Below are positions 578-32,398 of a DNA stretch of 64,000 nucleotides, in pieces. Below the pieces are notes generated by a model. It made no database searches. It saw nothing but the letters and a program-made list of their open reading frames with translations, and had not been told where the DNA came from. Position 1 is the stretch's first letter, and every line of letters starts with the position of its first letter. The position numbers were made by a program, and so were the translations under genes. The stretch is taken from assembly GCA_020632555.1 (NCBI GenBank), contig JACKFI010000002.1, positions 130,621 to 194,620 of the forward strand, in the 5' to 3' direction. The DNA is from Candidatus Omnitrophota bacterium. GTDB taxonomy: Bacteria > Omnitrophota > Gorgyraeia > Zapsychrales > JANLHA01.

Positions 578-605
578 TTTTATAAAAAGTAGAAGCTGTC
601 CCTAC
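578..605 (-). terminator. intrinsic terminator after the SNase-fusion gene
   Basis: Minus-sense GTAGGG-acagc-TTCTAC (4 Watson-Crick plus 2 G.U pairs) followed by TTTTTATAAAAAA. The stem overlaps the TAG stop codon at 602-604. Confidence 0.45.
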
Positions 606-1681: not shown

Positions 1682-1707
1682 AAACAGGTTATCTTCTGAA
1701 ACAAGAA

Positions 1708-4577: not shown

Positions 4578-4624
4578 CCAAATTAAAAATGTCCTAGTTT
4601 AACCAAATTAAAAATGTCCTAATT
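4578..4624. repeat. tandem direct repeat, 2 copies, period 25
   Basis: ccaaattaaaaatgtcctagtt (4578-4599) and ccaaattaaaaatgtcctaatt (4603-4624). The pair abuts the 3' end of the ISNCY-like transposase remnant. Confidence 0.85.
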
Positions 4625-5850
4625 TTAGAAGTTTCGTAAGCTCCCTTTGAGCTTAAACCCGTTGCGCCAATATGACCCCCTAGGCGGCACATATCGCGGC
4701 AATCTTTTGACCTTTTTGACAACGGCAACCTTAACCTCTGGCTGCGGCCGTTGGTCTATCGGTTTAAACGCTAATGGCTGCTTCCCATACTTGATCGCCA
4801 GCCGGCCATTTAAATACTCAAAAACTACCACCTGCCGAGCCCGCGTTTTATCTGTCACCTGATACAACCGGCGTTCATGCAACACGGTTCGGTCATTGCG
4901 TAACACATGCCCTGTCTGTACGGACAATATCTCGTCGAGTTTAACGCTCTTATCAATCGGCCGATGCATATCACCCAACAACCGCGCTACTACCTAAAGC
5001 GCTTATTAAACTTCGGCAAATACGTTTTTAAGAATGCGTTGGCTTCTTCACAACTCTTAATCCCGGCCAACCGCATCTCTTTAACCAACCGGTCTTGCAA
5101 TGTCTTAAAAACACGCTCGATGCGTCCCTTGGCCTGCGGACTATGCGCATGAATAACTTCGATCCCAAGTTGCTTACATGCTCGCTCAAACTGCGTCAGC
5201 TCTTCTTTGTCCTCAAAATCCCAATTCGCATAGCGATATCTTTTTTTAGCATTGCTTTTTATACGTCGCATGCTTATCAAGATACAATTGCACCGGCAAT
5301 CCATACTTCTGGGCGTAAGACTTTAACCCGCCATCGCCGGTTTGGTCCCCTCATACTCAAGAACAACCCATCAAAAATTACTCGTTGCGTCGTCGATAAA
5401 TCCCATCAAGACCAACTTCGGTCCTCGGTCTTCCAGCCAAAGATGATGACTCCCGTCCATCTGCACCATTTGCCCAAACCGTTCCCTTACGGGCTCGCCA
5501 ACTGCGCTCTTTAACTTTTCGACGCTTGCCCTCATGCCATAATCCTTCTGCTATCAGCCACAGCCGCAATGTCTCATCACTAATCTTAATATGATCTAAT
5601 TCCCAAAGTTTTTTCGCTGGCTAAAAAGTGGACCAAATCCCTTGTATCGCTCACGGTACAAACCCAAAATCCTTTCACGTACCGCTTTGGCAACACTACG
5701 CCGTCCTTTGCATCCTCGCGATCGGTGGATGACTCCGCGTTCTCCTTCCTTGCGTACCCGTCGGACAATCCGCCTGATCTGTCGATCACTTAATTCTATG
5801 GGAATGATACCATTGATCCTTACCCCTGATCCCAGCGGAGGCGATGAAAA
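4625..5850 (-). mobile_element. decayed ISNCY-family IS: DDE transposase pseudogene split by several frameshifts and stops, N-terminus truncated
   Basis: Fragments in three frames. The HTH region reads 'LSDRQIRRIVRRVRKEGERGVIH...YKGFGPLFSQRKL' (5590-5800). Next comes 'ISDETLRLWLIAEGLW...KRRKVK' followed by 'MVQMDGSHHLWLEDRGPKLVLMGFIDDATS'. The rve core is 'LTQFERACKQLGIEVIHAHSPQAKGRIERVFKTLQDRLVKEMRLAGI' (4990-5304). The C-terminus is 'GDMHRPID...RTVLHERRLYQV' (4625-4981). Confidence 0.7.
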
Positions 5851-6179
5851 TTTTATGTATTACGGATGAAGCATTTAAAAATATTAAAGAGGCTTACCAG
5901 GCCTTTTGCCAGGGCCTTAGAGGTCGATTACCCAAAAGATCGTTGAACCCTAGCCCCATTAGGGGGGAGAGTTTATTAGTACAAAAACAACCCGTCCTTA
6001 AGAAAAAACATTTTTCGGATTATGAACCCAGCAAAGCGATTTACCTCAACGAATGTGATTATCGCCGCTGGTGCCGCGTTAAGCGAATGGTTTAACCAAT
6101 ATGGATCTGATTCTGAATATTAAAAATCTATGAATTAAATAAAAATGGACACATAATAGCTCCTAAAATCCTTGGCGGG

Positions 6180-7300
6180 ATGAAAGGAGTGAAAAAACTT
6201 ATGTGTCCGTACAAATATTATCATGTTATGAGACAAAGCAAAGATAAAAAAATCTTACGTTACCAGATGGTTCTAAAGGCTCTAGCGCTGGGCGTCAAGC
6301 CCACAGCCAGACTTTTTAATACCAGCGCGCCTGTGGTCCGTAAATGGTCCAAGCGTTTTAAGACTGACGGTTATCTTGGATTAAACGACCGCTCCCACAA
6401 ACCCCACTATTCTCCCGGTGCCACACCCGAGCCTATAAAAAGTTTATCATCGATCTAAAGGGCAAATATAAGCGTTTGGGCGCAGAACACATTCGAAACT
6501 TAGAAGGTTTAACTTATGCCCCTAAAACCATGCGCAAAATCTGGAAAGAGGCGGGTATCCCGTCGAGAAAGAGACCCAAGAAACATGTCACAAAGAACAA
6601 CCTGCGCGCCGTAAAAATGCTCTTTAAATTATTCGAGCAATCCATGGAGGACACCAAAGACCTCATGGATATCCCCGAATACTATCTCCAAGCTAAAATG
6701 CTTAATCTGCCAAAAGTGCAATATACTTTTTCGGGAAGTCTCCTGCGGAATTCTTTTTACCGGCTTTGCCAATAATCTTTCGCTAACACATTCACAATTA
6801 TTTGCCGTCTATATCAACCACTTCCTCAAGAAATTTAGCGCTCTGCCGAAATCGGCTATGCGACAAACTGATAATGGCAGCGAATTCATCGGCGCTTGGA
6901 ATGCTAAAAAATCTTCTGCCTACACCAAGACCATCGAATCTGTGCCCGGCCAATGGCACAACACAATTTTCCCGGTGCACATCGCATGCAATCTGACGTC
7001 GAGACGATTCACAATCTCATGGAGATGGAATTCTTTGAGATTGAACAATTCAAGAATCAATAGGGCGGACTTCTTTAACAAAGCCACGTCCTATCAATTA
7101 TTCTTCAACCTGCATCGCACAAACTCTTACAAAGAACACAAAACACCTTGGCAATTAGCCCAAGAAAAGAAACCAGATTTGGACAAACGCTTACTGATGG
7201 TTCCTCCAGTCGATCTCGACAAACTACTCAACTGGAAATTATCACTTACTCATTCGAAGGGGGGTAACGATCACTTGACCGTTCCCTCATTTTTTGTGGC
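6180..7300 (+). mobile_element. decayed IS481-like IS: integrase-core transposase pseudogene, at least 3 frame breaks
   Basis: N-terminal HTH is 'ARLFNTSAPVVRKWSKRFKTDGYLGLNDRSHKPHYSPGATP' (6180-6458). The middle fragment spans 6476-6775. The DDE core is 'RQTDNGSEFIGAW' with the tail 'SYKEHKTPWQLAQE...PPVDLD' (6858-~7290). Frames differ between the pieces. This is the only plus-strand coding remnant in the window. Confidence 0.65.
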
Positions 7301-7329
7301 GGTTTTTTGCCCCAATCGCAACAGCACGC

Positions 7330-9726
7330 TCACCCTAAGCGTGTTTGAATATCCTCCGCCGAAATCGCCTTTGAAAAAAAGAACCCTTGTCCGGCATCAC
7401 AGCCATAACGTGTCAAAAAGTCCAGCTGAGCTTGTGTTTCAATACCCTCACCGGTCACCGAATACCCCAAACTGTGCGCCATCACAATAATCGCTTTGAC
7501 AATCGCCGCTTTATCAGGATTCTCAATAATGTCGTGAATAAAACTGCGGTCAATTTTCAATTCATCAATCGGAAAAAGCTTCAAACTGTTCAAAGAAGAA
7601 TACCCAATGCCAAAATCATCAATCGAAATCTTGATGCCCATCGAACGAAATTCATTGAGAACCGCGATGCTCAAAGAAACATCCTTCATCGCGATCGATT
7701 CAGTGATTTCAACCGCCAGCATATTGCCGTCGCCTTGACTTTCCTTCAGAAAGTTTTTAATCGTCCCCACAAAATTCTTTTGCTCAAACTGCTTGGCTGA
7801 AAAATTAACCGCCACGGGAACAACCGCTCGCCCCTGATCACGCCAGAGCTTGACCTGCTGACAAACCGTGCCCACCACCCAATTGCCAATGGTTGAAATC
7901 AACCCCGCTTCTTCCGCCAAGGGAATAAATTCAGCGGGAGTCACAAGTCCACGACGAGGATGATGCCAGCGCATCAGGGCTTCCAAACGAACAATTTTTT
8001 TGGTTGCCAAAGAAACAATGGGTTGATAATAAATAACAAATTCTTGCTTTTCCAAAGCATTGCGCAATTCCGCCTCCATTTGCAAAGAAGCCATCGCGTT
8101 TTTATGCATGGTCGTGTCAAAGACTTGATACCGCGCTTTTCCCAAAGCTTTGGCGCGATACATCGCAGTGTCCGTATCCCGCAAATAATCCGCCGGCTGA
8201 TTGGCTGTTGGATTGCTCAAAACAATCCCGATGCTGGCGGAAATATAAATTTCTTGGCCGGCAATCAAAAACACCGGCTTTAATGCGTTTAATATTCTCT
8301 CTGCCAACTCGGTCGCGTCACTGACATCGGTAATTTCATCCATCAAAATAATAAATTCATCGCCACCCAAACGGGCAACGGTATCCATCGTGCGCAAGCA
8401 CATTTGCAAGCGATGACTGATCGCCACCAAAAGCTCATCGCCTTTGGCATGCCCGAGGCTGTCATTGACATTTTTAAAACGATCCAAATCAACAAAAAGC
8501 ACCGCGAATCGATGCTCATGATGACGACGATTGCGTTCAATCAAACGTTCCAAACGGTCTAATAATAACGAACGATTAGGCAAAGCGGTTAGAACATCAT
8601 GAAACGCTTCATACTGCAGCCGTTCCTCAGACTGGCGCAGACTGTCCATCATTTCATTAAAACTGCGGCTCAATTGACCGATTTCATCGTCAGAAAAAAT
8701 CTCTGCCTTGGTCGTCAAATCTCCTGCTGAAACCCGTCGGGTGGTATTGACCAAACGTTTGATCGGGCGAGTGATATTGTGCGCCACAAAAAACGCGCTG
8801 ATCATGACACTACCCAAAATCAACAAAGAAATCCAAATCGAATGCATCAGCGTCATTTGCAATTCTTTGACAAAAAGCACCTGCGGAATACGCATGGTCA
8901 AATGAAACAATACCGCGCCGCCCTTGCCGACATTCATCCCATGTTCAAACGAATACCACTGCGCTGCGTCATCTTTCGAATCATCAGCTGCCGTTACCGT
9001 AAGCGACTCTTCACTGTTTCCCGAATACAATAAGGTCTTGCGATCAACACTATAAACAGAAGAAATCGACGTCCCGCGGAATCGGATTGTTGAAAGATAC
9101 CGAAAATACGGGGTCAAATCACAATGAAAAATCACCGCTCCGCCAAAACCGCCGGCGTCTGGATCGCGCTTGGACACACCAATCAAGAATGTTGTCTTAT
9201 TCTTATCTTGAAACGGACCTTCAAAAAGCATCAACCCCGAGGGCATATGTTCCAGCCGTTTAAACAAAGAATACAAACGGTCATAAAACTCACTGGGAGG
9301 ATGACTGAGCATCGAAGTATACTGATGAATGCGCCGATTCCCTTCAACAACAATTTCTTCCTTGCCTTGGCTGTTGATAAAACGCGCGGACAAATATTTG
9401 GTGCCGGCACTTTTTGTAAAATGCAAAAACAATTTTTCCGCATTAGGCTGGGTCAGATAAACTTCATTATTTTCCGACATCAAAAAATTATTTAACAGCG
9501 GTGTCGTCGTGATCAACTCCAAATCATTGCTGATTGTCTGGCTATAAAATTCTTCAAAATACCCTATCGCCTTGCCAAACGAATGCGCCACCTGGCCTTT
9601 GACATCCTTTTCAACCCATGTGCGGGATAATTCATAATGACTAATGGCCGAACAAAAAACCGCCACGATCCCGACGCCCAAAAATGCAATCAAAAGCTTT
9701 TTAAAAACAGTCAGTTGTATTTTCAT
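7330..9726 (-). CDS. membrane sensor diguanylate cyclase/phosphodiesterase (periplasmic sensor-HAMP-GGDEF-EAL)
   Basis: 798 aa with two TM segments flanking a ~270-aa periplasmic region. HAMP is 'ITRPIKRLVNTTRRVSAGDL'. GGDEF motif is 'RLGGDEFIIL'. EAL motifs are 'RLEALMRW' and 'DDFGIGYSSL'. Confidence 0.9.
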   Translation of the reverse strand: MKIQLTVFKKLLIAFLGVGIVAVFCSAISHYELSRTWVEKDVKGQVAHSFGKAIGYFEEFYSQTISNDLELITTTPLLNNFLMSENNEVYLTQPNAEKLFLHFTKSAGTKYLSARFINSQGKEEIVVEGNRRIHQYTSMLSHPPSEFYDRLYSLFKRLEHMPSGLMLFEGPFQDKNKTTFLIGVSKRDPDAGGFGGAVIFHCDLTPYFRYLSTIRFRGTSISSVYSVDRKTLLYSGNSEESLTVTAADDSKDDAAQWYSFEHGMNVGKGGAVLFHLTMRIPQVLFVKELQMTLMHSIWISLLILGSVMISAFFVAHNITRPIKRLVNTTRRVSAGDLTTKAEIFSDDEIGQLSRSFNEMMDSLRQSEERLQYEAFHDVLTALPNRSLLLDRLERLIERNRRHHEHRFAVLFVDLDRFKNVNDSLGHAKGDELLVAISHRLQMCLRTMDTVARLGGDEFIILMDEITDVSDATELAERILNALKPVFLIAGQEIYISASIGIVLSNPTANQPADYLRDTDTAMYRAKALGKARYQVFDTTMHKNAMASLQMEAELRNALEKQEFVIYYQPIVSLATKKIVRLEALMRWHHPRRGLVTPAEFIPLAEEAGLISTIGNWVVGTVCQQVKLWRDQGRAVVPVAVNFSAKQFEQKNFVGTIKNFLKESQGDGNMLAVEITESIAMKDVSLSIAVLNEFRSMGIKISIDDFGIGYSSLNSLKLFPIDELKIDRSFIHDIIENPDKAAIVKAIIVMAHSLGYSVTGEGIETQAQLDFLTRYGCDAGQGFFFSKAISAEDIQTRLG

Positions 9727-20561: not shown

Positions 20562-23500
20562 TTAATGAGCTTGATTCGTATTGACCCAACCGCCGCCAAT
20601 CGCTTTAATCAACTGCACCGCGGCGATCAAAGTTTCGGACTGAATTTTAATCGCGTCCCGCTCTGAATCCAAACGTGAACGCTCGGCGTCAATCACCTCC
20701 AAGAAACTCACCAACCCTTCCTTATACCGTTGTATCGAAAGATCCGCCGCTTGTTGGGCAGAATCACGCACAGCACTTTGCGCAGCATATTCTTCTTTGC
20801 GCAACCGAATATTTACCAAAGCATTTTCCACTTCGCTCAAAGCCGTCAAAACACGCTTTTTATATTGCGCCTGTGCTTTTTTATATTCCGCTTGCTGAAC
20901 TTTCACTTTGGCATTTAACCGTCCGCCATTAAATAATGGCAGGGTTATTGACGGATTAATAGACCACACCCGGCTTTCCCAATTGAGCAAATCACCCGAC
21001 GAAATGCTCGAGTATCCGGCGCTGCCCATCAATGTCACCGCTGGAAAAAAAGCCGCTTGTGCCACACCTATCCGATCGCTGGCTGCTGACAATAAACGTT
21101 CAGCCTCCACAATATCCGGCCGCTCCATCAAAACACTCGATGGCAACTTCACCGGAATTTCTGGCGTGATATTTTGCAAAAATAGCGGCGCCAAGCTAAA
21201 ATCACTGGCATTTTGCCCGCACAAAACCGCTAAGACATTAACCAAATTTTCCCGCCGCCGACGGCCATCCACCAAATCAGCTTGGGCTTGCGACAATTGC
21301 GTTTGCGCTTGAAAGAAAGTTAATTCGCTGTTCATCCCTTCCTGAAAACGCAATTTGAGCATATCCACCGCGCGCTGCCGCAATTCCACTGCTTTTTCTA
21401 AAGCAATAATCTCCGCGTCCACCGCGCCAATTTGAAAATACGTCCGTGCCACATCCGCTGTCAATGTCAAATACACCGTTCCATACGCGGCCACTTGCGC
21501 CTGCGCATCCGCCCGACCTGCCGCAAATGCCTTGCGCACCTTGCCCCAAATATCAATTTCATAACTCACATCCAACGGCAAGTGATAAGAATTACTGATC
21601 GCCGCCGGGAAATGGCTGCTGGCCGCCGAACGCGTCCGCCCAAACGACGGCTGCGCCTCAATCTCTGGCCAAAGAGCAGCCCCATCAACACGCGCTAAAG
21701 CCCGCGCTCGGTCCACATTGGCCATCGCGATCACCAAATCCTGATTGTTCGCTAAAGCTTTTTTTTGTAAATCATTTAATGTGCCATCACCAAACAATTC
21801 CCACCACGTCGATGTCACAGCCAAACCTGTATTCGTCGCTTGCGTATTTTTCCATCTGAGCTTTTGATCCATTGGCGGCTTTTGATAATGCGGTCCGACG
21901 CTGCAACCATTTAAAGTCAGAAAGAAAAACAAAACAATAATACTTACGGTTGTCGAATTTTTTAAACTCAAATCCTTCTGTTCCTTTTGCGCCAACTTGC
22001 TAAAAAACACATATACAACCGGAATAACAAATAAAGTCAAAAACGTGCTGGTCAACATCCCAAAAACCGCGGCAATACCCAGCGGCCGGCGCGCCTCGCC
22101 GCTGGCACCAAAACCAATAGCAATGGGCAGAATACCGACGATGGTAGCGGTCGCTGTCATCAAAATCGGGCGCAGCCGAATCAAGCCCGCCGCCAAAATC
22201 GCTTCGGTGGCCGTCTTGCCCTCAGCCATTTTTTGATTGGCAAACTCCACTAAAAGAATACCGTTCTTAGTCACCAAACCAAACAAGAGAATCATACCAA
22301 TCTGACTGTACAAATTAATATTCATGCCCGCCACAACACCCACGACTCCTGTTTTGCTGATCAAATTCATCAACCACAACCCCCCCAAAGCCCCAAACGT
22401 CGCCAATGGCAAAGTGAACATCACCGTCAAAGGATGAACCAAGCTTTCAAACTGCGCCGCCAAAACCATATAAATAATCAAAATCGATAAAATCATGACA
22501 AAATAAATACCCTTATTCGACTCATTGAGATCCCGCGCTTCTCCTGCCCATTCATAACGAAATCCGTCGGGTAAATCTGTCTTTAAAAGCGCCGTCGCTT
22601 GATCAACCGCAGTGCCCAAAGGAATACCCATTGGCGTCGCTTCAATGGTCGCGCTGCGCCAGCGATTATAATGATTAATCGCGCTGGGTCCAGCCCCGGT
22701 CTGCGTGTTAATCACATTATTCAAACCAATCAATTCGCCGCGATTATTACGAACATAAATCTTTTCCAAATCCGACGGCAACAAACGCGACGCGCGTTCC
22801 AATTGAACAATGACCTCATACTCTTTTCCCTTGATATTGACCTTCGAAAGGTCCAATCCGCCAAACAAAATTTGCATCGTCCGCGAAATATCTTCAACAT
22901 TAACACCAACCGCCGCGGCCCGATTGCGATCCACATCGATGCGCAGTTCTGGTTTATTCATTTCAAAGGTCGTGCGAACATTCAACAAAAAACCGGTTTG
23001 TCGTAATTTATTGGTCAAATCTTGAGCGTAATCATTGAGCGCGTTCAAATCTTGGCTTTGAATAACCAATTGAAACGGCTGGCTAAACCCACGGCCAATC
23101 GCTTTAGGAATAATCGGAATCACAAAAGCGCCCTCAACATTATTAAAGAACTGCGCTCCCAAGCCCGTCGGGCCGCCAATAATATCGCGCAAATGCCGCT
23201 TGCGTTTATCTTTCAAACGAATAAACGCCAAGCCTTGCGATGTTTGTCCCGGACTGCCGCGCGACAAAGCCACCGCGGAAAAATAACCTTCGACCTCCGG
23301 CACCTTCGAAATAATTCCTTCCATTTTTTTGATCATCCGATCCGTGTATTCGCTGGTCGAACCTTCCGGAGCCAAAGCAAAACACAACAATCGCCCTTTA
23401 TCTTCGTCAGGCAGAAATTCTTTTTCCAATTGCGTAAAAAAGAACACCGTCAAGCCAATAGCCACCACAACCACTGAAGCCATCAGCTTAGGATGCGACA

Positions 23501-25067
23501 GTGCCCAGCGCAAACCACGGCCATAACGCTCATTGATCTTGGTCAAAAACCGTTCAAACATGCCCAAAAAACTTCCCTTGGGACTATGCCCAATCGGTTT
23601 TAAAATCCGTGAAGACAACATTGGGCTTAACGTCAAAGCAACAAATGAGGAAATGATCACCGACATGCACAAAGCGACAGAGAATTCCACAAACAACCGG
23701 CCCGTGACACTGGTTTGAAAAGCCATCGGCAAAAACACGGCGATCAAGGCAATCGTCGTCGCGATAATGACAAAACCAATTTCCTGCATGCCCTTAAACG
23801 CGGCCGCCCGCGGATCCATGCCGTCCTCAATATGCCGATAAATATTTTCCAAAACAATAATAGAGTCGTCCACAACCAAACCAATCGCCAAAACAAAAGC
23901 CAACATGCTGACAATATTGATAGAATAGCCAAATAACTGCAACACGCCAAAGGTCGCGACAATAGACACCGGAATGGTCAAAGCTGGAATCAGCGTCGAC
24001 CGGCCATCATGCAAAAAAAGATAAATCGAAAGCACAACCAAACCAAAAGCAAGAAAAAGCGTTTCCCAAACTTCTTTGATCGCGCGATCCACATAAATGG
24101 ATTCATCATAGGGAAAAGCCGTTTCAATCCCTTTGGGCAAAGTGGGGATAATTTTAGCCACTTCGGCCTTAACCCGACGGGTAACGTCAATGGTATTGGC
24201 TTTAGACTGACGCACAATGCCAATGCCCAAAGCCGGTTTGCCATTAAAACGGGCAATGGCTTTTTCATCCTCAACACCGACTGTGGCATGCCCGATATCC
24301 GACAAACGGATGAAGGTCGCCCCGTCTTGTTTGATAACCAAATTATTATATTCTGCGGGCGTTTTCATTTCCCCGCGGGTTTCAATGGATAAAACCCGGC
24401 TCCAACTTTCCACCAAGCCGCTGGGCAATTCCACATTTTGCGTCTTAAGCGCCCGTTCGACATCCAAAACCGTCACGCCGCGCGCGGCCATTTTTTGCGC
24501 GTCTAACCACAACCGAATCGCGAAACGTTTTTCTCCGCCCAAAATCACCGAGCTGACACCCGTGATGGTTTGCAAACGATCTTTAAAAGTTGTTTCCGCA
24601 ATCGATGTTAGCTCCAGCGTCGAGTAACGATCACTGAACAAAGCCACCCACAACACCGGCTGAGCATTGGAATCCTGCTTGGCCACAATCGGTTCTTTGA
24701 TATCATCCGGCAAACGGCCCCGCACCCGAGCCACGCGGTCACGCACATCCTGCGCGGCCAAATCAATATCACGCGAAAGATCAAATTCAACCGTTACCGA
24801 GCTGACTTGTTGACGGGATTCGCTGGTGAGATTTTTAATACCCTCGACCGACGTGATGGATTCTTCCAAGATTTCAGTAACCTGCGTCTCAACCACACTG
24901 GCGCTGGCACCGGGATAAACAGTGGTGATATTGATAATCGGCGGGTCAATGTCGGGAAGTTCACGCACCGGCAGACGGGAAATACCGATGATGCCAAACA
25001 AAATGAGCCCTAAGCTCATCATTGTGGCCAAAACCGGCCGTTTAATACTGATTTCGGAAAGTTTCAT
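20562..25067 (-). CDS. RND efflux permease (AcrB/HAE1-like, codons 1-1032) in frame with a NodT-family outer-membrane-factor lipoprotein (codons 1033-1501)
   Basis: One uninterrupted 1501-codon ORF. The AcrB-like N-terminus is 'MKLSEISIKRPVLATMMSLGLILFG'. From TTG codon 1033 (21971) a lipoprotein signal begins (SLKNSTTVSIIVLFFFLTLNGC, lipobox LNGC), followed by an OMF body ('GPHYQKP', 'WWELFGD'). See the finding on the T6 run at 22002-22007. Confidence 0.85.
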   Translation of the reverse strand: MKLSEISIKRPVLATMMSLGLILFGIIGISRLPVRELPDIDPPIINITTVYPGASASVVETQVTEILEESITSVEGIKNLTSESRQQVSSVTVEFDLSRDIDLAAQDVRDRVARVRGRLPDDIKEPIVAKQDSNAQPVLWVALFSDRYSTLELTSIAETTFKDRLQTITGVSSVILGGEKRFAIRLWLDAQKMAARGVTVLDVERALKTQNVELPSGLVESWSRVLSIETRGEMKTPAEYNNLVIKQDGATFIRLSDIGHATVGVEDEKAIARFNGKPALGIGIVRQSKANTIDVTRRVKAEVAKIIPTLPKGIETAFPYDESIYVDRAIKEVWETLFLAFGLVVLSIYLFLHDGRSTLIPALTIPVSIVATFGVLQLFGYSINIVSMLAFVLAIGLVVDDSIIVLENIYRHIEDGMDPRAAAFKGMQEIGFVIIATTIALIAVFLPMAFQTSVTGRLFVEFSVALCMSVIISSFVALTLSPMLSSRILKPIGHSPKGSFLGMFERFLTKINERYGRGLRWALSHPKLMASVVVVAIGLTVFFFTQLEKEFLPDEDKGRLLCFALAPEGSTSEYTDRMIKKMEGIISKVPEVEGYFSAVALSRGSPGQTSQGLAFIRLKDKRKRHLRDIIGGPTGLGAQFFNNVEGAFVIPIIPKAIGRGFSQPFQLVIQSQDLNALNDYAQDLTNKLRQTGFLLNVRTTFEMNKPELRIDVDRNRAAAVGVNVEDISRTMQILFGGLDLSKVNIKGKEYEVIVQLERASRLLPSDLEKIYVRNNRGELIGLNNVINTQTGAGPSAINHYNRWRSATIEATPMGIPLGTAVDQATALLKTDLPDGFRYEWAGEARDLNESNKGIYFVMILSILIIYMVLAAQFESLVHPLTVMFTLPLATFGALGGLWLMNLISKTGVVGVVAGMNINLYSQIGMILLFGLVTKNGILLVEFANQKMAEGKTATEAILAAGLIRLRPILMTATATIVGILPIAIGFGASGEARRPLGIAAVFGMLTSTFLTLFVIPVVYVFFSKLAQKEQKDLSLKNSTTVSIIVLFFFLTLNGCSVGPHYQKPPMDQKLRWKNTQATNTGLAVTSTWWELFGDGTLNDLQKKALANNQDLVIAMANVDRARALARVDGAALWPEIEAQPSFGRTRSAASSHFPAAISNSYHLPLDVSYEIDIWGKVRKAFAAGRADAQAQVAAYGTVYLTLTADVARTYFQIGAVDAEIIALEKAVELRQRAVDMLKLRFQEGMNSELTFFQAQTQLSQAQADLVDGRRRRENLVNVLAVLCGQNASDFSLAPLFLQNITPEIPVKLPSSVLMERPDIVEAERLLSAASDRIGVAQAAFFPAVTLMGSAGYSSISSGDLLNWESRVWSINPSITLPLFNGGRLNAKVKVQQAEYKKAQAQYKKRVLTALSEVENALVNIRLRKEEYAAQSAVRDSAQQAADLSIQRYKEGLVSFLEVIDAERSRLDSERDAIKIQSETLIAAVQLIKAIGGGWVNTNQAH

Positions 25068-25089: not shown

Positions 25090-26187
25090 CTAAGGTTTTG
25101 ATTCTTCGGACGGCTTATCACTCTTATCTGTTTTGATTTTGACCAAAGACCCCGGGCCAATTTTTTGATATCCTTCGACAATCACATTCTCACCGGCAGT
25201 TAAACCTTCAAGAATCTCAACTTGACCGACCATACGAATACCGACTTTCACTTTTTTCATTTGCGCTTTATTCTCACTGTCCACCACAAAAACAAAAACA
25301 TCATCACTTTTCATCATCAGCGCCGTTTCCGGAACCACCAAAGCCTGTTGACGAATGCTCACAATCAAATTCAAATTCGCGAACATTCCGCGAACCAATC
25401 GGCCGTCGACATTGGGCAGTTTTGCTTTGATCAAAGCGGTACGAGTCAATTCATCAACCTGCGAATCAATAAAATAAACTTCCCCTTTAAAGGTTTCATC
25501 TGGATACGCCGCGACCGTAACTTCAATACCTTGGCCCTCTTTGAGTTGCCCCAAAAAACGTTCAGGAATACGAAACTCCGCTTTCATCGGATCTTGCTTG
25601 ATCAAAGTCGTTAACAAAGTCCCTTGATTTACAAATTGGCCAATGCTGACCTTGCGGTCACCGGTAATGCCGGCAAAACTCGCGGTAATCTGCGTTTCTT
25701 TCAACTGCGCATTAATCAAATCTATCTGCGCTTTGCACGCCTCTAAATCAGAGGTCGCCTGATCAAACTCCTGTTGAGAAATGGCATTGGCTTTTATGAG
25801 GGTCGACAGCCGCGCGAAAGTTGTTTGCGCCAAACCCAAACTCGCTTGAGCCTGCGCCAAAGATGCTTTGAGTTTGCCCGCGTCAATCACAAACAACATT
25901 TGACCTTGCTCAACGGCTTGTCCTTCGGAAAAACCAATTTCTTCAATCACGCCGGCAATTTGATTCTTGATTTCAATCGATTCATCGGCCTGCAAATTTC
26001 CCACCAAGGAAATTTTTTCCTCGATCTTCTGAATCTTAACGGGTACAGCCACCACATTCATCGCAAAACCGCCCATCGCCCCGCCGGGATGACCACCCTT
26101 TTTATCCGAACCGCAACCCGATACAACAAATGTGGAAATCAAAACGGCACAACCGCACAAAACAAAAAGACTATTTTTAAAGCGCAT
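25090..26187 (-). CDS. RND efflux periplasmic adaptor (MFP/HlyD_D23 family) lipoprotein
   Basis: ATG at 26187 with an AAGGA Shine-Dalgarno 6 nt upstream; the track's TTG at 26220 is rejected. The signal ends in a 'VVSGC' lipobox. It has coiled-coil and beta-barrel regions typical of AcrA-like adaptors. Confidence 0.85.
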   Translation of the reverse strand: MRFKNSLFVLCGCAVLISTFVVSGCGSDKKGGHPGGAMGGFAMNVVAVPVKIQKIEEKISLVGNLQADESIEIKNQIAGVIEEIGFSEGQAVEQGQMLFVIDAGKLKASLAQAQASLGLAQTTFARLSTLIKANAISQQEFDQATSDLEACKAQIDLINAQLKETQITASFAGITGDRKVSIGQFVNQGTLLTTLIKQDPMKAEFRIPERFLGQLKEGQGIEVTVAAYPDETFKGEVYFIDSQVDELTRTALIKAKLPNVDGRLVRGMFANLNLIVSIRQQALVVPETALMMKSDDVFVFVVDSENKAQMKKVKVGIRMVGQVEILEGLTAGENVIVEGYQKIGPGSLVKIKTDKSDKPSEESKP

Positions 26188-26337
26188 ACGCATTCCTTTT
26201 TTTATCGCCGCCAAAGCCAAAATACGGCAATAATCTTAACACATTTTTCAGAAAAGTTGACGTTGAAATTCCCTATCACCGTCCCGTAGTATTACTACGC
26301 TCAATCTCCATATTTACTTCAAAAACAAAGCTTCAAC

Positions 26338-27003
26338 TTAGCTCGACGTCCATTCCCATCCGCATTTAGAACAACGGTGTTCATGAGCATAAATAATAGC
26401 CCCACAGGCAAGGCAATCCGTTGAACCCAGTTCTTCTAATTGAGAATTTAATTCATTAATCATATCTTCTATATTTGCTTGGGTCATTTCTCTTTCAGAA
26501 GAACTTTGTCTCTTATATTCATTAAGGATACGCATAAAATCTTTTATAAATGCCCCCCATTCAATATCCACGACTGTTCCATTTGAATCTTTAATAAATT
26601 TATCATCAGATCCGTATCTGTTTGGCATTTTAAAGTGCGATTCCAAAGATTTAAAAAGCCTATATGAAACATCAATGTCACCGTCTTTAATAGCCTGATA
26701 TAAATCTTTGATTTTTTGATTAATATACTTTTGTGGCGATAAGCAATACGTCAACCTATCTTTAAGCAACCAAACCGTAGCCGCAATACCAAGTCCCAAT
26801 AAAATCGCATGAATAAGAATTCCCAAGTAAAAAACCTCAGGCGTGTCTTTCAGCGAATACTCACCAGGGGCAACAAATAAACGCAAAGGATCACGATAAT
26901 AATCCATAACATGAACCTTACCCGCAAGAATTTCATTGCCGACGAAATATAAAAGAAAGAAAATAGTAAAGATAAAAAGCACCAGGATCACATTCTTTTT
27001 CAT
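26338..27003 (-). CDS. hypothetical membrane protein with C-terminal CxxC...CxxC zinc ribbon
   Basis: ATG at 27003 with an AGGAGA Shine-Dalgarno. It has two TM segments and the C-terminus 'CLACGAIIYAHEHRCSKCGWEW'. The region is visibly AT-rich. Confidence 0.5.
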   Translation of the reverse strand: MKKNVILVLFIFTIFFLLYFVGNEILAGKVHVMDYYRDPLRLFVAPGEYSLKDTPEVFYLGILIHAILLGLGIAATVWLLKDRLTYCLSPQKYINQKIKDLYQAIKDGDIDVSYRLFKSLESHFKMPNRYGSDDKFIKDSNGTVVDIEWGAFIKDFMRILNEYKRQSSSEREMTQANIEDMINELNSQLEELGSTDCLACGAIIYAHEHRCSKCGWEWTSS

Positions 27004-27050: not shown

Positions 27051-27128
27051 TTACGTAAAATAATTCCCCACCGGCAATCTTTGTCCAACGGCAAAGGCGT
27101 GAGCAGACATGGGCTTAACGGATTGCAA
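27051..27128 (-). pseudogene. orphan duplicate of the fmt C-terminal 25 codons
   Basis: Reads LQSVKPMSAHAFAVGQRLPVGNYFT*, against fmt's PQSGKEMPAYAFAVGQRLSVGSCFG*. The 24-nt core 27075-27098 matches 28505-28528 at 23/24. There is no upstream coding continuation. Confidence 0.8.
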
Positions 27129-27136
27129 ATAAAGTA

Positions 27137-27192
27137 TTTTAAACTCGGATTTTGCATTTCACTTTTTTGTGCGCAACGTATCGTCGCGCACT
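27137..27192. repeat. 55-nt dispersed repeat, copy B (homolog of 3556-3610)
   Basis: My hand alignment gives 47/55 identities with copy A (tttaaactcggattttgcatttcacttttttgtgcgcaacgtatcgtcgcgcact). It lies directly between the orphan fmt fragment and the Fic stop codon. Confidence 0.85.
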
Positions 27193-27232
27193 GTTAAGAA
27201 CCCACCAAAACATTAACGAAAAGCGACTTGAA

Positions 27233-28261
27233 TTATTTTTTACGATCCAAACTTGCGATATGCTCCGCCATATCATGAACACGAACATACCAGAGCTTTC
27301 CCTTCTTCTTGGCCTTGAGCACTCCACGATTGATCAGATTACGCAAATAATCTTGAGAATAATCATATAGCCGCGCCAGATCGCGCAAAGGAATAATAGC
27401 ATCCTTATCCAAACTATTTGTCGTTGTCCTATTCATACGCTTAAAACTTTCAGCCAATCGATCCAACACGATTTTTTTAAGCCCTTTTAACGGGACATCC
27501 GTAACGATCCCATCCGCCTGCTCTAACGAAATCTTCTTTCCCTGCTCAAGCCTTCGATTGATCGCTTCAAAACAATCATCTCCTTGTTCTAAAGCATTAT
27601 AATATTGATCTCGATCTGTCTTAGAAAAACCCTTGATCGCAATATTAAGATGCCCCGTACCAATAAGAATATAATTCAAAAGAATACGTCCGCAACGTCC
27701 ATTCCCATCTCTGAAAGGATGAATTGTTTCAAACCAAGTGTGTGCCAAGGTTGCCAATGTAATAGAAGAATACTTAGATCGCTTCAAATGCTTATTGACC
27801 CAACGAACCATCAAGTCCATCGCTGCTCGAAGATAAAAATGATCAATCGGTTTAAAACGAGATTGTGTAACTTCAACGGTTAATTCACGAAAGTCCCCGA
27901 TCTGCCCAATATAACTGCCCAACTCTTTCTCATACCGCATGAGAATCGTGTGAATCTGCTTAACATCTGACATCCTTAAAACAAACTCCCCCTCCTGCCA
28001 CTGATTGTAAGCATAGTCATACATAGCGCTAGCGGATTCAAAATACCCCAAAATCGCAGCCGCCTTTTCCTTATTGGTCCGACTATTATGTTCAAGGACA
28101 TCAATCAGTTCTTGACGATTAGCAAAAACTCCCTCAATCGCAATAGAGTTGCGAATCTCTTCACGGAAAAGCGAATACCACTCCACATTCTGAACCGTAA
28201 CAAGCCGTCTTTTGTCGGAATGTAGTGTGGCAATGGCTTTTTTTAGACTTTTTTCATCCAT
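27233..28261 (-). CDS. Fic-family protein (class II, N-terminal inhibitory helix) with C-terminal excisionase/MerR-type HTH
   Basis: 342 aa with an ATG start. The canonical active site is 'HPFRDGNGRCGRILLNY' (HxFx[DE]GNGRxxR). The inhibitory motif 'SIAIEG' ([ST]xxxE[GN]) lies upstream in the same chain. The C-terminal HTH is 'LRDLARLYDYSQDYLRNLINRGVLKAKKKGKLWYV'. Confidence 0.9.
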   Translation of the reverse strand: MDEKSLKKAIATLHSDKRRLVTVQNVEWYSLFREEIRNSIAIEGVFANRQELIDVLEHNSRTNKEKAAAILGYFESASAMYDYAYNQWQEGEFVLRMSDVKQIHTILMRYEKELGSYIGQIGDFRELTVEVTQSRFKPIDHFYLRAAMDLMVRWVNKHLKRSKYSSITLATLAHTWFETIHPFRDGNGRCGRILLNYILIGTGHLNIAIKGFSKTDRDQYYNALEQGDDCFEAINRRLEQGKKISLEQADGIVTDVPLKGLKKIVLDRLAESFKRMNRTTTNSLDKDAIIPLRDLARLYDYSQDYLRNLINRGVLKAKKKGKLWYVRVHDMAEHIASLDRKK

Positions 28262-28277
28262 AACAGCTCTCCCATCT

Positions 28278-28373
28278 ATTTTCGAACCACCTCACATGGT
28301 TCGGAAATAGTATACTGAATTATCGACGATATGCAATAAATAATGTCTCATATATTCCGAACTTTCCGAACCA
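28278..28373 (-). promoter_or_regulatory. Fic promoter with repeated TTCCGAACCA-type operator half-sites
   Basis: Minus-sense TTGCAT-16 nt-TATACT is followed at once by the inverted repeat TTTCCGAACCA-tgtgagg-TGGTTCGAAA, then the GGGAGA Shine-Dalgarno and the ATG. A second pair, GGTTCGGAAAGTTCGGAA, lies ~70 nt upstream (28355-28373). Confidence 0.55.
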
Positions 28374-28480
28374 TACCTCCTGCCAGCACGGCAGAACTCC
28401 GTTGAAATACACCAACAGCTGAATAATACCATCCTGTGATTTAACAAACTCTGACAAGAATAAAAACAAACCCTACCTCA

Positions 28481-29410
28481 CTATCCAAAGCAACTACCAA
28501 CGGACAATCTTTGTCCGACGGCAAAGGCATATGCCGGCATCTCCTTGCCGGATTGCGGATGAACTGTTTTTAACACCAACGCATCTTTGCTGGTCGCAAC
28601 AATAATGCCCTCTTTGGTGATCGTAAGGATTGTTCCCGGCGTTTGTGAAAACTCTTGAGGAACAACCGCACTGCTAAGAACCTTAAATATTTTGCCTTGA
28701 TATGAAGTATACGCGCCCGGCCAAGGAACAAGCCCGCGAATCACATTATGAATATCACCTGCCGGCTTATTCCAATTGATATGCCCTAACTCTTTGCTCA
28801 ACTTGGGCGCCAAGCTCACATCGTTCTGATTTTGTGCTGTTAATGAAAATTGTCCGTCGGCAATATTTTTTATCGTAGGACACAAACATTGCGCGCTGGC
28901 TTTGGCCATACGACTACGCAAACTTTGCGCTGTTTCATCAGCGGCAATACTCATCTTCCCTTGTACAATAATTTCACCGGCATCCATTTTCGAATTCATT
29001 TTAATCAAAGAAAACCCCGTCTGTGTTTCTCCCCGAATAATAGCCCAATTGATCGGCGCCGCTCCCCGATACTTTGGCAAAAGCGAACCGTGCACATTAA
29101 CACAAAATATTTTAGGAATTTGCAGCACACAAGCTGGAAGAATTTTACCATAAGCAATCACCACAAACAGATCCGCAGCAAAATTTCGTAAAGACTCTAA
29201 AAAGGCTGAATCCCGCACATCATCCGGTTGTAAAACCGGAATCTGCTGCTTCAAAGCGATCTGCTTAATCGGTGAAGCGACCACCTGCAAACCTCGTCCG
29301 CTGGGCCGATCTGGCTGAGTCACGCAAGCAACAATCGAAAACTTTTCCGACAATAATTGCCGCAAGCTCTCTGCCGCGAAATCATCACTGCCAAAAAAAA
29401 TAATTTTCAT
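28481..29410 (-). CDS. fmt: methionyl-tRNA formyltransferase
   Basis: Motifs seen are 'IIFFGSDDFA', 'PDRPSGRG', 'NVHGSLLPKYRGAAPINWAII' and a C-terminal beta-barrel domain. The ATG at 29410 is preferred; the track's TTG at 29431 is not. Confidence 0.9.
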   Translation of the reverse strand: MKIIFFGSDDFAAESLRQLLSEKFSIVACVTQPDRPSGRGLQVVASPIKQIALKQQIPVLQPDDVRDSAFLESLRNFAADLFVVIAYGKILPACVLQIPKIFCVNVHGSLLPKYRGAAPINWAIIRGETQTGFSLIKMNSKMDAGEIIVQGKMSIAADETAQSLRSRMAKASAQCLCPTIKNIADGQFSLTAQNQNDVSLAPKLSKELGHINWNKPAGDIHNVIRGLVPWPGAYTSYQGKIFKVLSSAVVPQEFSQTPGTILTITKEGIIVATSKDALVLKTVHPQSGKEMPAYAFAVGQRLSVGSCFG

Positions 29411-29434: not shown

Positions 29435-31270
29435 TTAAGGGTTCACATCAACGGTTAGAATAACACCTTTACGTTTATGATAATCCGATAGAACAGGTTC
29501 AACCTGAGCCAACATCTTTTTAACAATCTTACCCTTGAGCATTATAGTGTAGCGAAACTTATCCCGCAATTTTGGTATCACATCTGGCTGCGGCAAAGCA
29601 ATTTCAAAGCCCTTACCCTTGATTCCTTTGAGCTGCTCATACAATTCTTGCGCCTGTGTCAAAACACTTTCTTCCACCGTCCCCCGCAAAGCCAATGCCA
29701 TGACCTGCGCATACGGCGGCAAATTCAATTCCCGACGAACTTTAAGTTCTTTCCGATAAAATGTATCGGCATCCAGTGAGGCCGCAGCGACAATCGACTC
29801 GTGCTTTGGACTACGTGTTTGCACCAGCAATTTTTCGCCAGCCGCTTGCCGCAAACGAATTAACAATGAAAACACGCGGCTGCTGGCACGAAAATCAATA
29901 CGGTTGATTTCACCATCAAAATCCAAAACAGCAATCAGCGAAAAATGCGCCCGATGCAAAAACGGCATCACCGCCGCTGTCGCGATCATCAGATTGGATT
30001 GCTTCGAAAAAGTTTTGGCCCCCCGGTCAAATGTGGCCACCTGCGCCTGCGGATAAATCCGCGCCAATTCACTTTCCAATTTTTCTATGCCTGTTCCCGT
30101 TGATCGTAAATACGAACCATTGCACTGCGGACACATTTTAGGCAAATCCGATGAAAAGCCGCAACGATGACACATTAATTTCTTTTTAGAATACATAAAA
30201 CTTAAGTTTGTGTTACACCGTTGACATTTGAGCACCAGCCCGCATTGATTGCATTTGGTCGAAGTGCTAAACCCTCGGCGATTCAAAAACAACAAAACCT
30301 TACCGTTTTTGACCAATGTTTCTAGAATCATATTCTGCAGGGGAAAAGACACCAGCATGTTCTGATATTTATAATTCGCTAAATCAATCACCTGAAAATC
30401 CGCCAAATGTTTTTCGGCACAAATCTCTGGGACAACTTTTTTATCTTTAAGAATTTTCCACAATTCCGCGCTGGGCGCCGGACTGACAAATAAAACATCA
30501 CACTGTTCATTTTTGTGCCGCCACAAAGCCACCTGCCGCGCGTGATAAAAAGGCGAAGGCTCTTGTTTATACGAAGGATTTTCTTCATCAACCATCACAA
30601 TCAAACCCACATCCGGCATCATGGCAAAAACAGCTGAACGCGTTCCCAACACCACGCGCGCCCGTCCTTCTTTGACCGCCAACCACTGGGTCAACTCGTG
30701 CTTAACACCCTGATAACGATCTAAAACACATACATCAACAGCACAAACTTTTTCTAAAAACTCTTTGACCACCATGATCTGGCCAATCTCAGGAACAAGA
30801 AAAATAATCCCCCCTCCTTGAGCCAAAATACTTTTTAGTTTTTGCGCGACCGTTTTTGCCGCAGCTTGCAATGAACCTTGGTAAAAAAGAATCTTGGGCT
30901 CTGTCGGTCGCATGATCTGTGGCTGAGGCGTCCAAACAATTTCTCTTTTATCTCGCAAAATCGCAGGCAAAGCCACTTCAATGGCCTCACCCCACGAACA
31001 GGCATAATATTGAGCTAAATCCCAAGTCAATTTTAGAAAATGTTCATCAAGTGTCGGAATATTATCTAAAACAGTGCTCAACGGTTTGATTCGTGGAAAT
31101 TGGGTTTCGGTCAACAAACCAATGACAAAACCTACGCGAAACTTGGATCGGAAAGAAACAACCACGCGCGAACCCACACGAATATGTTCCCGCAGATGAT
31201 GCGGAATTGAATAATCAAACGGACCGGCAACGGGAAGCCCGACAACAATTTGGGCAATCGAATGACACAT
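29435..31270 (-). CDS. priA: primosomal protein N' (PriA) homolog with degenerate ATPase motifs
   Basis: 611 aa. The N-terminal 3'-DNA-binding/WH region ('VGLPVAGPFDYSIP') and the Cys-rich zinc region (CNQCG...CQRCN...CHRCG...CPQCN) are present. The Walker A position reads 'GSLQAAAKT', Walker B reads 'DEEN', and 'AGRAGR' reads 'RQAAGE'. Confidence 0.8.
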   Translation of the reverse strand: MCHSIAQIVVGLPVAGPFDYSIPHHLREHIRVGSRVVVSFRSKFRVGFVIGLLTETQFPRIKPLSTVLDNIPTLDEHFLKLTWDLAQYYACSWGEAIEVALPAILRDKREIVWTPQPQIMRPTEPKILFYQGSLQAAAKTVAQKLKSILAQGGGIIFLVPEIGQIMVVKEFLEKVCAVDVCVLDRYQGVKHELTQWLAVKEGRARVVLGTRSAVFAMMPDVGLIVMVDEENPSYKQEPSPFYHARQVALWRHKNEQCDVLFVSPAPSAELWKILKDKKVVPEICAEKHLADFQVIDLANYKYQNMLVSFPLQNMILETLVKNGKVLLFLNRRGFSTSTKCNQCGLVLKCQRCNTNLSFMYSKKKLMCHRCGFSSDLPKMCPQCNGSYLRSTGTGIEKLESELARIYPQAQVATFDRGAKTFSKQSNLMIATAAVMPFLHRAHFSLIAVLDFDGEINRIDFRASSRVFSLLIRLRQAAGEKLLVQTRSPKHESIVAAASLDADTFYRKELKVRRELNLPPYAQVMALALRGTVEESVLTQAQELYEQLKGIKGKGFEIALPQPDVIPKLRDKFRYTIMLKGKIVKKMLAQVEPVLSDYHKRKGVILTVDVNP

Positions 31271-31309: not shown

Positions 31310-32398
31310 TTATTTGATCAAGGCTACAATATCAGAAACAGCTTGCGGACGAGCCAAGGCTTTGATTTTTGCTTTCACATCAGATAATTCTTGCTGAGAA
31401 CTCTGCAAACGTTTTAACTCCGCGGCCATTTGAATCATGCTGCAATCACTGATCCCGACGCCATAGCTCGCCAAGACCTTAACATTATTGGTTTCCTGTC
31501 CGGGAATCGCATTAAAAAAAATCATCGGCAAACCACGAACCAAAGCTTCAGTAATGGATAGCCCGCCGGGTTTGGTGATCATCGCATCCGAAAGCCCCAT
31601 CATTTCATCCATATTCTGAACTAAACCAAAAACTTTGACATGATCCCCGGCCGCCATCCGCAAACGTTCATACAGTTTTTTATTATGCCCGCAAATCACC
31701 ACCACTTGAAAATCCTGCAAATGTTGAATAATTTCTTCAATCGGCCCGATCCCAAAAGAACCAGTGGCAATCAAAACCGTAAACCGATCTGCCGGTAAAT
31801 TCATTTTCGCCCGCAATTGCTCAACATCAACAGGGCGAGAAAAATTCTTATGCGTCGGTATACCGGTCAACTTCACCTGTTGAGGATCAACTCCCAAAGA
31901 TATGATTTTGCGCTGTGTCCAATCACTGGCAACGGCATAATAATCGATGCCTTGTGCCAACCAAATGCTATGCACATCATAATCCGTAACAACCGAAATA
32001 ATGGTTGAGCGAATCTTGCCAGCTCTTTTTAAAGCGGCAGAAACTTCATTGCCCAGAAAATGCGTCGAAATAATATAATCAAAATTTTCTTTTTGCAAAT
32101 ACGCGTGAAATTTCGGCGTATTGATAAAATTATAAACTCTTCGGATCACTCGCACCGCCGGCCGCAAAAATGGAATATCCAGCAGAGCAAAGAAAAATCC
32201 CCACACAGCCGGAGTCCGCGTGATCAAAAAGGTATACACTCCGCTATACGACTTTCTAAAAAGCGCATTGGCATATTGCAAAGAGTCAATCAAAACAACT
32301 TCATGCACTGAACCAGACGCTTTAAACCCATGATAAATTGCCTCAGCGGCTTTACGATGACCAGCGCCAGCTGTGGCGTAAACAATTAAAATTCGCAT
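31310..32398 (-). CDS. GT28 glycolipid synthase (MGDG synthase / UgtP-like diacylglycerol glycosyltransferase)
   Basis: 362 aa. It carries 'ILIVYATAGAGHRKAAEAI', 'HFLGNE' and 'ITKPGGLSITEAL'. Confidence 0.75.
   Translation of the reverse strand: MRILIVYATAGAGHRKAAEAIYHGFKASGSVHEVVLIDSLQYANALFRKSYSGVYTFLITRTPAVWGFFFALLDIPFLRPAVRVIRRVYNFINTPKFHAYLQKENFDYIISTHFLGNEVSAALKRAGKIRSTIISVVTDYDVHSIWLAQGIDYYAVASDWTQRKIISLGVDPQQVKLTGIPTHKNFSRPVDVEQLRAKMNLPADRFTVLIATGSFGIGPIEEIIQHLQDFQVVVICGHNKKLYERLRMAAGDHVKVFGLVQNMDEMMGLSDAMITKPGGLSITEALVRGLPMIFFNAIPGQETNNVKVLASYGVGISDCSMIQMAAELKRLQSSQQELSDVKAKIKALARPQAVSDIVALIK

Follow-up and report, generated by a model that had tools for sequence, protein, structure and literature searches.

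Genomic islands and prophages that carry an integrase enter tRNA or protein genes at the 3′ end and bring a substitute for the stretch of gene that they displace, and an integrase is the usual route for insertions at such 3′ ends. Circular DNA can also integrate through short homology by a single Campbell-type crossover, as suicide plasmids do. Here we analyze a Fic gene cassette in Candidatus Omnitrophota bacterium, located in a 64-kb stretch of contig JACKFI010000002.1 (the whole stretch is referred to below as the window). In this stretch, fmt, the gene for methionyl-tRNA formyltransferase, ends in an intact working copy of its 3′ end, and a second, orphan copy of that end lies downstream, with the Fic gene between the two and a 24-nt core common to both. 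We consider it likely that the intervening DNA is a foreign, non-autonomous 1430-bp cassette that entered fmt at its 3′ end through a single reciprocal crossover of Campbell type, using a look-alike of the fmt end that the cassette itself carried. Among described elements, cis-mobilizable elements (CIMEs) are decayed ICE or IME derivatives (ICE, integrative and conjugative element; IME, integrative and mobilizable element) that keep attL and attR without integrase or transfer genes (PMC5704250).

ICE/IME ancestry aside, the cassette fits the operational definition of a CIME, and it can be described as a CIME-like islet of minimal size that occupies a housekeeping gene's 3′ end. Like CIMEs, for example those at the fda 3′ end of Streptococcus thermophilus, it has att-like direct repeats that take in a housekeeping gene's end, keeps the target gene intact, has no recombination genes of its own and carries accessory cargo. 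It differs in its size of 1.43 kb with one gene, in repeats of 73% identity and a 23/24 core where CIMEs have near-identical att sites, and in its target, fmt in the phylum Omnitrophota, for which an ICE or IME with the same specificity is not known. With 3′-end islands and prophages it shares a replacement end at one junction, the displaced end at the other and an empty site in a relative, but it is without an integrase, and its look-alike reaches ~28–45 nt upstream of the core. Of the features by which attL/attR islands are recognized, the flanking repeat over the target 3′ end, the single-att empty site and the shared core are all present, whereas an integrase within the element is missing, the only open reading frame (ORF) being Fic/HTH_17. 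As in Campbell-type integration, duplicated homology brackets the insert, and the copies would be reciprocal chimeras if the crossover was internal; in contrast to that process, the homology here is ~90 nt long and 73% identical with identical runs of at most 11–12 nt, far below what RecA uses efficiently.

The window was compared with 96 other fetched loci (97 in total including the window; labelled L001, L002 and so on). One of these, L088, comes from a congener, lies on a 105-kb Logan contig and has 84.8% DNA identity to the window over priA–fmt. Its gene order is mgdg–priA–fmt–221-aa gene–membrane fusion protein (MFP)–resistance-nodulation-division (RND) transporter, with a single fmt end and no Fic gene between, and its homologue of the 221-aa gene (8979–9644; 191 of 222 amino acids identical) starts 48 nt past the fmt stop codon. 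In blastn, window positions 31000–28487 correspond to L088 6410–8924 and window positions 27144–24001 to L088 8837–11979; the single fmt end of L088 aligns with both window copies, and the window is longer by exactly 1430 nt. L088 is an empty site, and the sequence 3′ of the orphan is native. A sequence-only reading of the same DNA had proposed an integration footprint with a replacement 3′ end and a displaced one, and had expected an empty site to read fmt followed directly by the 221-aa gene with one 3′ end; L088 has this arrangement and, with the 1430-nt difference, supports the proposal.

The duplication is unique to the window genome. No second fmt-end copy was found by tblastn of four fmt C-terminal peptides in 80 relatives, and in a fuzzy search for the core over the 97 loci two copies occurred in the window only, core-like sequences being single elsewhere; no relative lacking Fic was found to carry both copies in either search. 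The attL side together with the Fic gene is reproduced at 100% identity in an independent Logan assembly, L001, which ends 68 nt past Fic, at about position 27165, inside the hairpin unit described below.

The repeat itself is as the sequence-only reading had reported. The last 25 codons of fmt (28481–28558) and the orphan (27051–27128), both on the minus strand, share 54 of 78 nt and 16 of 25 residues, and the mismatches are distributed 6/6/12 over the codon positions, i.e., half of them at third positions. The ungapped repeat spans 88 nt at 73% identity (27057–27144 and 28487–28574, spacing 1430), and a repeat search ranked this pair as the strongest direct repeat across the whole window. 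The 24-nt core, GCCTTTGCCGTYGGACAAAGATTG, is found exactly twice in the window, with 0 occurrences expected by chance (100 shuffles); its two copies match at 23 of 24 positions and contain both of the longest identical runs, of 11 and 12 nt. Local alignment of the two Fic flanks scores 59, against 21.4 ± 2.3 for shuffled sequence (z = 16.6), which places the fragment far above background. The orphan consists of 25 in-frame codons and a stop codon, with ~16 nt of weaker similarity further upstream, and it is not part of a longer gene: an in-frame TGA lies 8 codons (24 nt) upstream of position 27128, and the other frames across it hold a 40-aa ORF at most.

Both window copies were then aligned with the congeners L088, L089 and L091. 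Upstream of the core by more than ~45 nt, the working copy reads as normal fmt sequence (24–25 of 26 positions as in the relatives) and the orphan is random (7/26); over the 21 nt before GCAATCCG the orphan matches at 12 of 21 positions (counted from the alignment), and GCAATCCG itself is matched 8/8 in both copies. In the 20-nt stretch 5′ of the core, L088 is matched at 17/20 positions by the working copy and at 11/20 by the orphan, and L089 at 10/20 by the working copy and at 19/20 by the orphan. Past the core the orphan tail is nearer to L088 (ACG-TAA vs ACG-TAG), and beyond this tail colinearity with L088 extends over the next 3.1 kb (84% identity). On the working side, homology to L088 ends at 28487, and the working-copy tail with the 104-nt spacer that follows it has no blastn match in the 96 loci. 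The working copy is native on its left side and imported on its right, and the orphan is native on its right side, with a far left that belongs to the insert. A single reciprocal crossover that joins the chromosome to a circle bearing an fmt-end look-alike has this topology as its product; attL would then be B-O-P′ and attR P-O-B′.

According to the proposed mechanism, the cassette would comprise the Fic gene, a 115-nt upstream block, the 104-nt spacer, an 88-nt 3′ flank and the fmt-end look-alike of ~75–95 nt. The look-alike, with the cassette in circular form, would have crossed over with the fmt end of the chromosome. In the product, fmt is intact with a new tail, and the displaced end lies 1.43 kb downstream, directly before the 221-aa gene that follows fmt in L088. 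The imported portion of fmt would then amount to its last 8–25 codons. The Formyl_trans domain model stops at residue 300 of 309, and a swap of the last 8 codons therefore falls outside the conserved domain. We infer that another member of the genus-level group supplied the look-alike as a genuine fmt end, and if so, a related donor probably had the cassette at this same locus.

As for the point of exchange, we regard the 24-nt core and GCAATCCG as about equally probable. A crossover in the core, precisely within its first 11 nt, may have left both copies half native and half imported; the single core mismatch would then follow the tails (C in L091, T in L088), the chromosomal parent would have been L088-like throughout, and neither parent would have been a mosaic. 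Under this reading, the look-alike of the element (ending in QSVKPMSAHAFAVGQRL-SVGSCFG and the stop codon) would share 23 of 25 residues with the L091 fmt end. A crossover at GCAATCCG may instead have left the whole 25-codon orphan native, and the sharp drop in similarity just upstream of GCAATCCG fits this reading, as does the fact that the MSAH-type allele carried by the orphan is the majority type in L089, L091 and the next clade out (L002–L005). The claim that one of the copies is foreign thus holds for a crossover at GCAATCCG, whereas with a core crossover each copy would be part native and part imported.

The 20-nt patch 5′ of the core (e.g., L088 8863–8882) exists in two allele classes. 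A GK(A/E)MPAY-type patch is found in the working copy and L088, with GNAMPAY in L023, and an AKPMSAH-type patch in the orphan (as VKPMSAH), L089, L091 and L002–L005. The window is 84.8, 83.4 and 82.8% identical to L088, L089 and L091, respectively, over priA–fmt, and those three are 85–88% identical to one another. This matrix places the window outside the three congeners, and either crossover reading therefore needs one extra recombination at the 20-nt patch. L088 and L089, which are 87% identical overall, agree at 10/20 positions within it. The pattern suggests short-patch recombination at the fmt end within the genus, and that the fmt end may have been visited more than once.

The sequence-only reading had noted the lack of an integrase or transposase inside the cassette, and this observation extends to the surroundings: a Pfam search for recombinase domains (tyrosine or serine integrase) found none in the cassette or in any ORF of at least 150 aa in the 64-kb window. 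Without a recombinase, the element is non-autonomous. We give about half of our weight to an integrase that acted in trans or has since been lost, treat host homologous recombination through the short identical blocks as a tentative candidate, and consider some other enzyme unlikely. In favor of the integrase option, one Fic relative travels beside an integrase. An fmt-targeting integrase element was found in none of the other 96 loci. Host recombination would require no recombinase from the element and would explain why the look-alike reaches upstream of the core, where it is not needed for rebuilding fmt, and it would allow variable crossover points and hence the swapping of patches. Taken to its full extent, this idea makes the cassette an integrase-free 'homing' element that moves between related genomes purely by host recombination via the look-alike, which we think rather improbable. 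Excision and integration would then take place at variable points within ~90 nt, each visit swapping a short patch of the fmt end, and such swapping would explain the 20-nt MPAY/MSAH patch that runs against the genome tree (L088 vs L089/L091).

Several points weigh against integration of a foreign cassette by one reciprocal crossover. Identical runs of 11–12 nt within 73% identity are very short for RecA-type recombination. The distribution of MPAY and MSAH alleles contradicts the priA–fmt tree and identity matrix, and the crossover point is not fixable from the alignment, so that the 5′ half of either copy could be the native one. The attR junction rests on one assembly, L001 stopping before the orphan, and the empty site comes from a congener at ~85% identity, not from a conspecific. 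In the collections scanned, a second occupied fmt site, the donor arrangement, an excised circle and an integrase were all unfound.

The same data bear on other explanations. If an assembler had joined reads of two co-occurring congeners, the orphan would not truly lie downstream of Fic, and this would suit an attR side that is seen in one assembly only, a Logan contig that stops at ~27165 in the hairpin unit and an orphan whose 5′ half resembles the allele of another species. Such a chimera is nevertheless very unlikely: no identical run shared by the copies exceeds 12 nt, a length that would not lead an assembler astray, and an exact reciprocal product with 1430 extra nt and L088-colinear sequence on both sides would need two coordinated jumps. 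Even less credible is a local tandem duplication of the native fmt end into which Fic was dropped later, both copies being native. Direct repeats bracketing Fic and the absence of a recombinase would be expected from it, but the copies fall into different allele classes (working copy 17/20 to L088, orphan 19/20 to L089), decay from an identical duplicate cannot converge on the allele of another species at 9–10 positions, and the working tail with its spacer is without a native counterpart.

Improbable as well is the import of the occupied locus (attL–Fic–attR) as a whole by a double crossover in the flanking genes, the integration having happened in another lineage. The cargo of this interval varies in every relative, which suggests frequent replacement by flanking recombination; however, the original single-crossover event would still be needed and would only be relocated, and both flanks are ~84–85% identical to L088 with no obvious imported tract. 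We give next to no credence to an integron-type (attC) insertion or to an insertion sequence (IS) or transposon with target-site duplication. The small single-gene cassette, the hairpin near its 3′ end and GTTRRRY-like strings noticed by eye in the orphan recall such elements, but there is no intI, attI or transposase, and the nearest DDE fragments are decayed and ~20 kb away. Moreover, terminal inverted repeats are absent, a repeat of 88 nt with 73% identity does not qualify as a target-site duplication, R″/R′ core sites are missing from the hairpin, the cassette has its own regulatory block, and past the stop codon the Fic block is no longer conserved. Integration by one reciprocal crossover remains the reading that we prefer, and the features of the locus are listed below on this basis.

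Table. Coordinates of the features of the fmt–Fic locus (window positions, except for the last row, which is given in positions of L002).
Feature	Position	Strand	Basis or remark
MGDG-synthase-like glycosyltransferase	31310-32398	-	
priA	29435-31270	-	
fmt (methionyl-tRNA formyltransferase), intact, 309 aa	28481-29410	-	Pfam Formyl_trans_N/C, synteny
Working copy of duplicated fmt 3′ end (attL-like junction)	28487-28574	-	Repeat search; aligns with L088 8837-8924
GCAATCCG, copy 1	28549-28556	-	Alternative crossover point, left edge of clear homology
24-nt core, copy 1, GCCTTTGCCGTCGGACAAAGATTG	28505-28528	-	Candidate crossover region; flanks switch allele affinity
Imported fmt tail (last 8 codons and stop) and 104-nt spacer	28377-28504	-	No counterpart in relatives
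Upstream block travelling with Fic	28262-28376	-	115 nt; inverted repeats and promoter-like site
Inverted repeat ATGGTTCGGAAA	28363-28374	as minus-strand read	In upstream block
Inverted repeat TTTCCGAACCAT	28296-28307	as minus-strand read	In upstream block
Fic/HTH_17 gene, 342 aa	27233-28261	-	Pfam, PADLOC; sole gene between copies
Cassette 3′ flank	27145-27232	-	Holds 46-nt hairpin unit (27149-27194)
Orphan fmt 3′ end (attR-like junction)	27051-27144	-	Aligns with L088 from 8837 onward, colinear for 3.1 kb
GCAATCCG, copy 2	27119-27126	-	
24-nt core, copy 2, GCCTTTGCCGTTGGACAAAGATTG	27075-27098	-	
221-aa membrane/zinc-ribbon gene	26338-27003	-	Native downstream neighbour of fmt, now separated by cassette
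RND efflux pair (MFP and RND)	25090-26220 and 20562-25067	-	
L002 interval between fmt and MFP/RND	1787-2753		Bro-N

The cargo gene matches the Pfam Fic family at 4.4e-16, and its C-terminal HTH_17 domain scores 27.9 bits vs a cutoff of 27. The Fic motif HPFRDGNGRCGR (residues 181–192) follows the canonical HxFx(D/E)GNGRxxR pattern, and an N-terminal inhibitory motif, SIAIEG (residues 39–44), follows the pattern (S/T)xxxE(G/N). Class II Fic proteins are auto-inhibited AMP-transferases with an N-terminal inhibitory helix motif. The PADLOC model for SoFic (PDLC03963) is matched at 1.6e-33 over residues 6–325, the NCBIfam SoFic equivalog at 40.7 bits against a cutoff of 550, and the matches to FICD and SoFic structures in the PDB are distant, at ~1e-5 to the SoFic chains. 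The protein resembles SoFic, a PADLOC anti-phage candidate known from Shewanella (PDB 3EQX/3ZCN), in its near-full-length profile match, in both motifs and in having a C-terminal domain of DNA-binding type; it differs in the low NCBIfam and PDB scores and in the HTH_17-like character of this domain, and its defence role is a predicted one. There are more than 400 homologues, and among the matches listed 119 of 120 carry both Fic and HTH_17. The cargo is probably a SoFic-like auto-inhibited AMP-transferase that acts as a single-gene defence or toxin-like module.

Among the closest relatives of the Fic gene, DNA conservation covers the ORF and ~115 nt upstream (window 28376–27231) and nothing beyond. 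This block recurs at 74–86% DNA identity in L082–L087 and L092–L095, in unrelated contexts. Fic was confirmed as the only gene between the copies, and the promoter of its own that the sequence-only reading had assigned to it is plausible: a promoter-like TTGCAT-16 nt-TATACT was recognized by eye at 28336–28309, and a sigma-70 consensus scan made no call in the upstream block. The inverted repeats in this block form a putative operator, at which the Fic protein may regulate its own gene through its HTH domain. As a separate observation, the upstream block with GGTTCGGAAA-type inverted repeats is tandemly duplicated in L082 (5769–5860), L095 (5776–5867) and L092 (514–545).

Elsewhere, the neighbours of Fic include ParE, AbiEii with a YoeB-like toxin, DUF1016 with a second Fic gene, and methyltransferases; one relative lies beside SLFN-type helicases, with a phage-type integrase ~1 kb downstream, at a non-fmt locus. 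From its recurrence in unrelated neighbourhoods, the Fic block is mobile accessory cargo, typical of defence and toxin–antitoxin surroundings. None of the eight fetched contexts of the closest Fic relatives (74–89% aa identity) is adjacent to fmt. In L082, a DUF1016_N gene adjoins the Fic relative.

A test for flanking repeats on the contexts of Fic relatives found only one that resembles the window, namely L092 (GCA_021733325.1). Here, an 89%-identical Fic gene is bracketed by a diverged direct repeat of ~145 nt (216–359 and 1879–2023; z = 17.9 vs shuffles), the left edge of which carries a perfect 15-mer, CAACCTGAAGGTCAA. L092 may represent another insertion of this style, with a different target; an empty site for it was not found in the comparison, and the 55-aa flank is without a homologue. 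Within the rather improbable 'homing' reading, this bracketing repeat hints that target-mimicking repeats may spread the Fic defence gene, possibly aided by an excisionase-type HTH_17. A repeat of another kind is seen in L083, where 50 nt (3092–3138 and 7211–7260) recur directly at 88% identity, with a 35-nt stretch at 97% and a terminator-like character; between its copies lie 4.1 kb with five genes, among them ParE and an 89%-identical Fic gene.

The 3′ flank of the cassette contains the repeat that the sequence-only reading had placed at 27137 and considered as a possible recombination site. It corresponds to a 46-nt hairpin unit, in which a 9-bp stem containing a G-U pair (GTGCGCGAC/GTTGCGCAC) is followed by A6 and then by GTGAAATGCAAAAT. 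The unit occurs once per 64 kb, and the only other copy found is in L091 (227–272, opposite strand), 97.8% identical and with sharp borders, although the two genomes are ~83% identical overall; the sole difference keeps the stem paired via G-U on the Fic-sense strand. That copy sits upstream of priA in a non-syntenic, hairpin-rich segment, outside any fmt end. The unit has no Rfam match, and exact-pattern searches gave 0 hits in JGI metagenomes and none in viral contigs; the spacer likewise had 0 exact-pattern hits in JGI metagenomes, and Fic relatives had 0 hits in viral contigs. An Rfam search, a terminator scan and RNA folding of the 3′ flank gave nothing significant, and the base composition of the insert is not distinctive. 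Readings of the core or hairpin as dif/Xer-like or attC/GTTRRRY sites, made by eye, were dropped as chance-level matches with no cognate genes.

The identity of fmt is secured over its full length (Formyl_trans_N 7e-41, Formyl_trans_C 1e-27 in Pfam). Its protein is 82% identical to P0122/P0123, with three closer relatives in the protein database at 79–82%, L088 among them, and it places the window in Omnitrophota. The mgdg–priA–fmt synteny is kept in more than 60 of the fetched Omnitrophota loci, where mgdg denotes the gene of a glycosyltransferase resembling monogalactosyldiacylglycerol (MGDG) synthase, and in the window all genes of the region, from this one through priA, fmt, Fic/HTH_17 and the 221-aa gene to the RND efflux pair, lie on the minus strand. 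The 221-aa gene matched no Pfam, NCBIfam or PADLOC family; the orphan side keeps its native 48-nt leader and Shine-Dalgarno sequence. A terminator scan found no terminator-like site between fmt, Fic and the 221-aa gene.

Relatives of the window carry different cargo between fmt and the MFP/RND genes in every case listed. Bro-N genes are found there in L002, L004 and L005; L003 (4887–7062) has YbjQ and an M48 peptidase, and L004 (8931–12773) a GH2-like gene as well as remnants of the L003 cargo. L023 (8937–11014) carries GNAT, PfkB and MarR genes, and L091 (3125–5274) a 164-aa gene together with HTH_3 and frameshifted Fic/Doc genes, the latter two forming a pair that resembles 'mobile mystery proteins'. 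None of these intervals contains an orphan fmt end. The spot is a general hot spot of gene turnover, in which the att-like footprint belongs to the Fic insertion specifically.

Further observations concern the rest of the window. The RND transporter gene encodes a 1501-aa fusion whose C-terminal third is an OEP (outer-membrane factor) domain, a call that rests on precomputed Pfam hits (ACR_tran and OEP) of the L088 orthologue; if so read, the fusion would put the pump and its exit duct in one polypeptide. At 4600–7500, short overlapping ORFs on both strands encode DDE (rve-type) transposase-like peptides, e.g., HSPQAKGRIERVFKTLQ and DNGSEFIGAWNA, and look like one or two decayed IS copies, ~20 kb from the cassette. 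At 602–3426, a DUF1016_N/nuclease-like gene adjoins a PRiA4_ORF3/DUF7309/DUF6930 gene, both of accessory type.

With an occupied and an empty site, both junctions and reference alleles, this locus is an unusually clean natural case, in which an essential gene has received one defence-type gene at its end and remains unharmed. It adds fmt to the list of 3′-end integration targets, for which a literature search found no earlier report, in a host phylum that is uncultivated and whose mobile elements are barely described. It also indicates that very small cassettes without a recombinase can bear att-like junctions; island finders for which an integrase is mandatory would overlook them. Should the integrase-free reading be true, it would provide a simple route for the exchange of defence genes among close relatives, and the patchy alleles at the ends of housekeeping genes would be explained as well.

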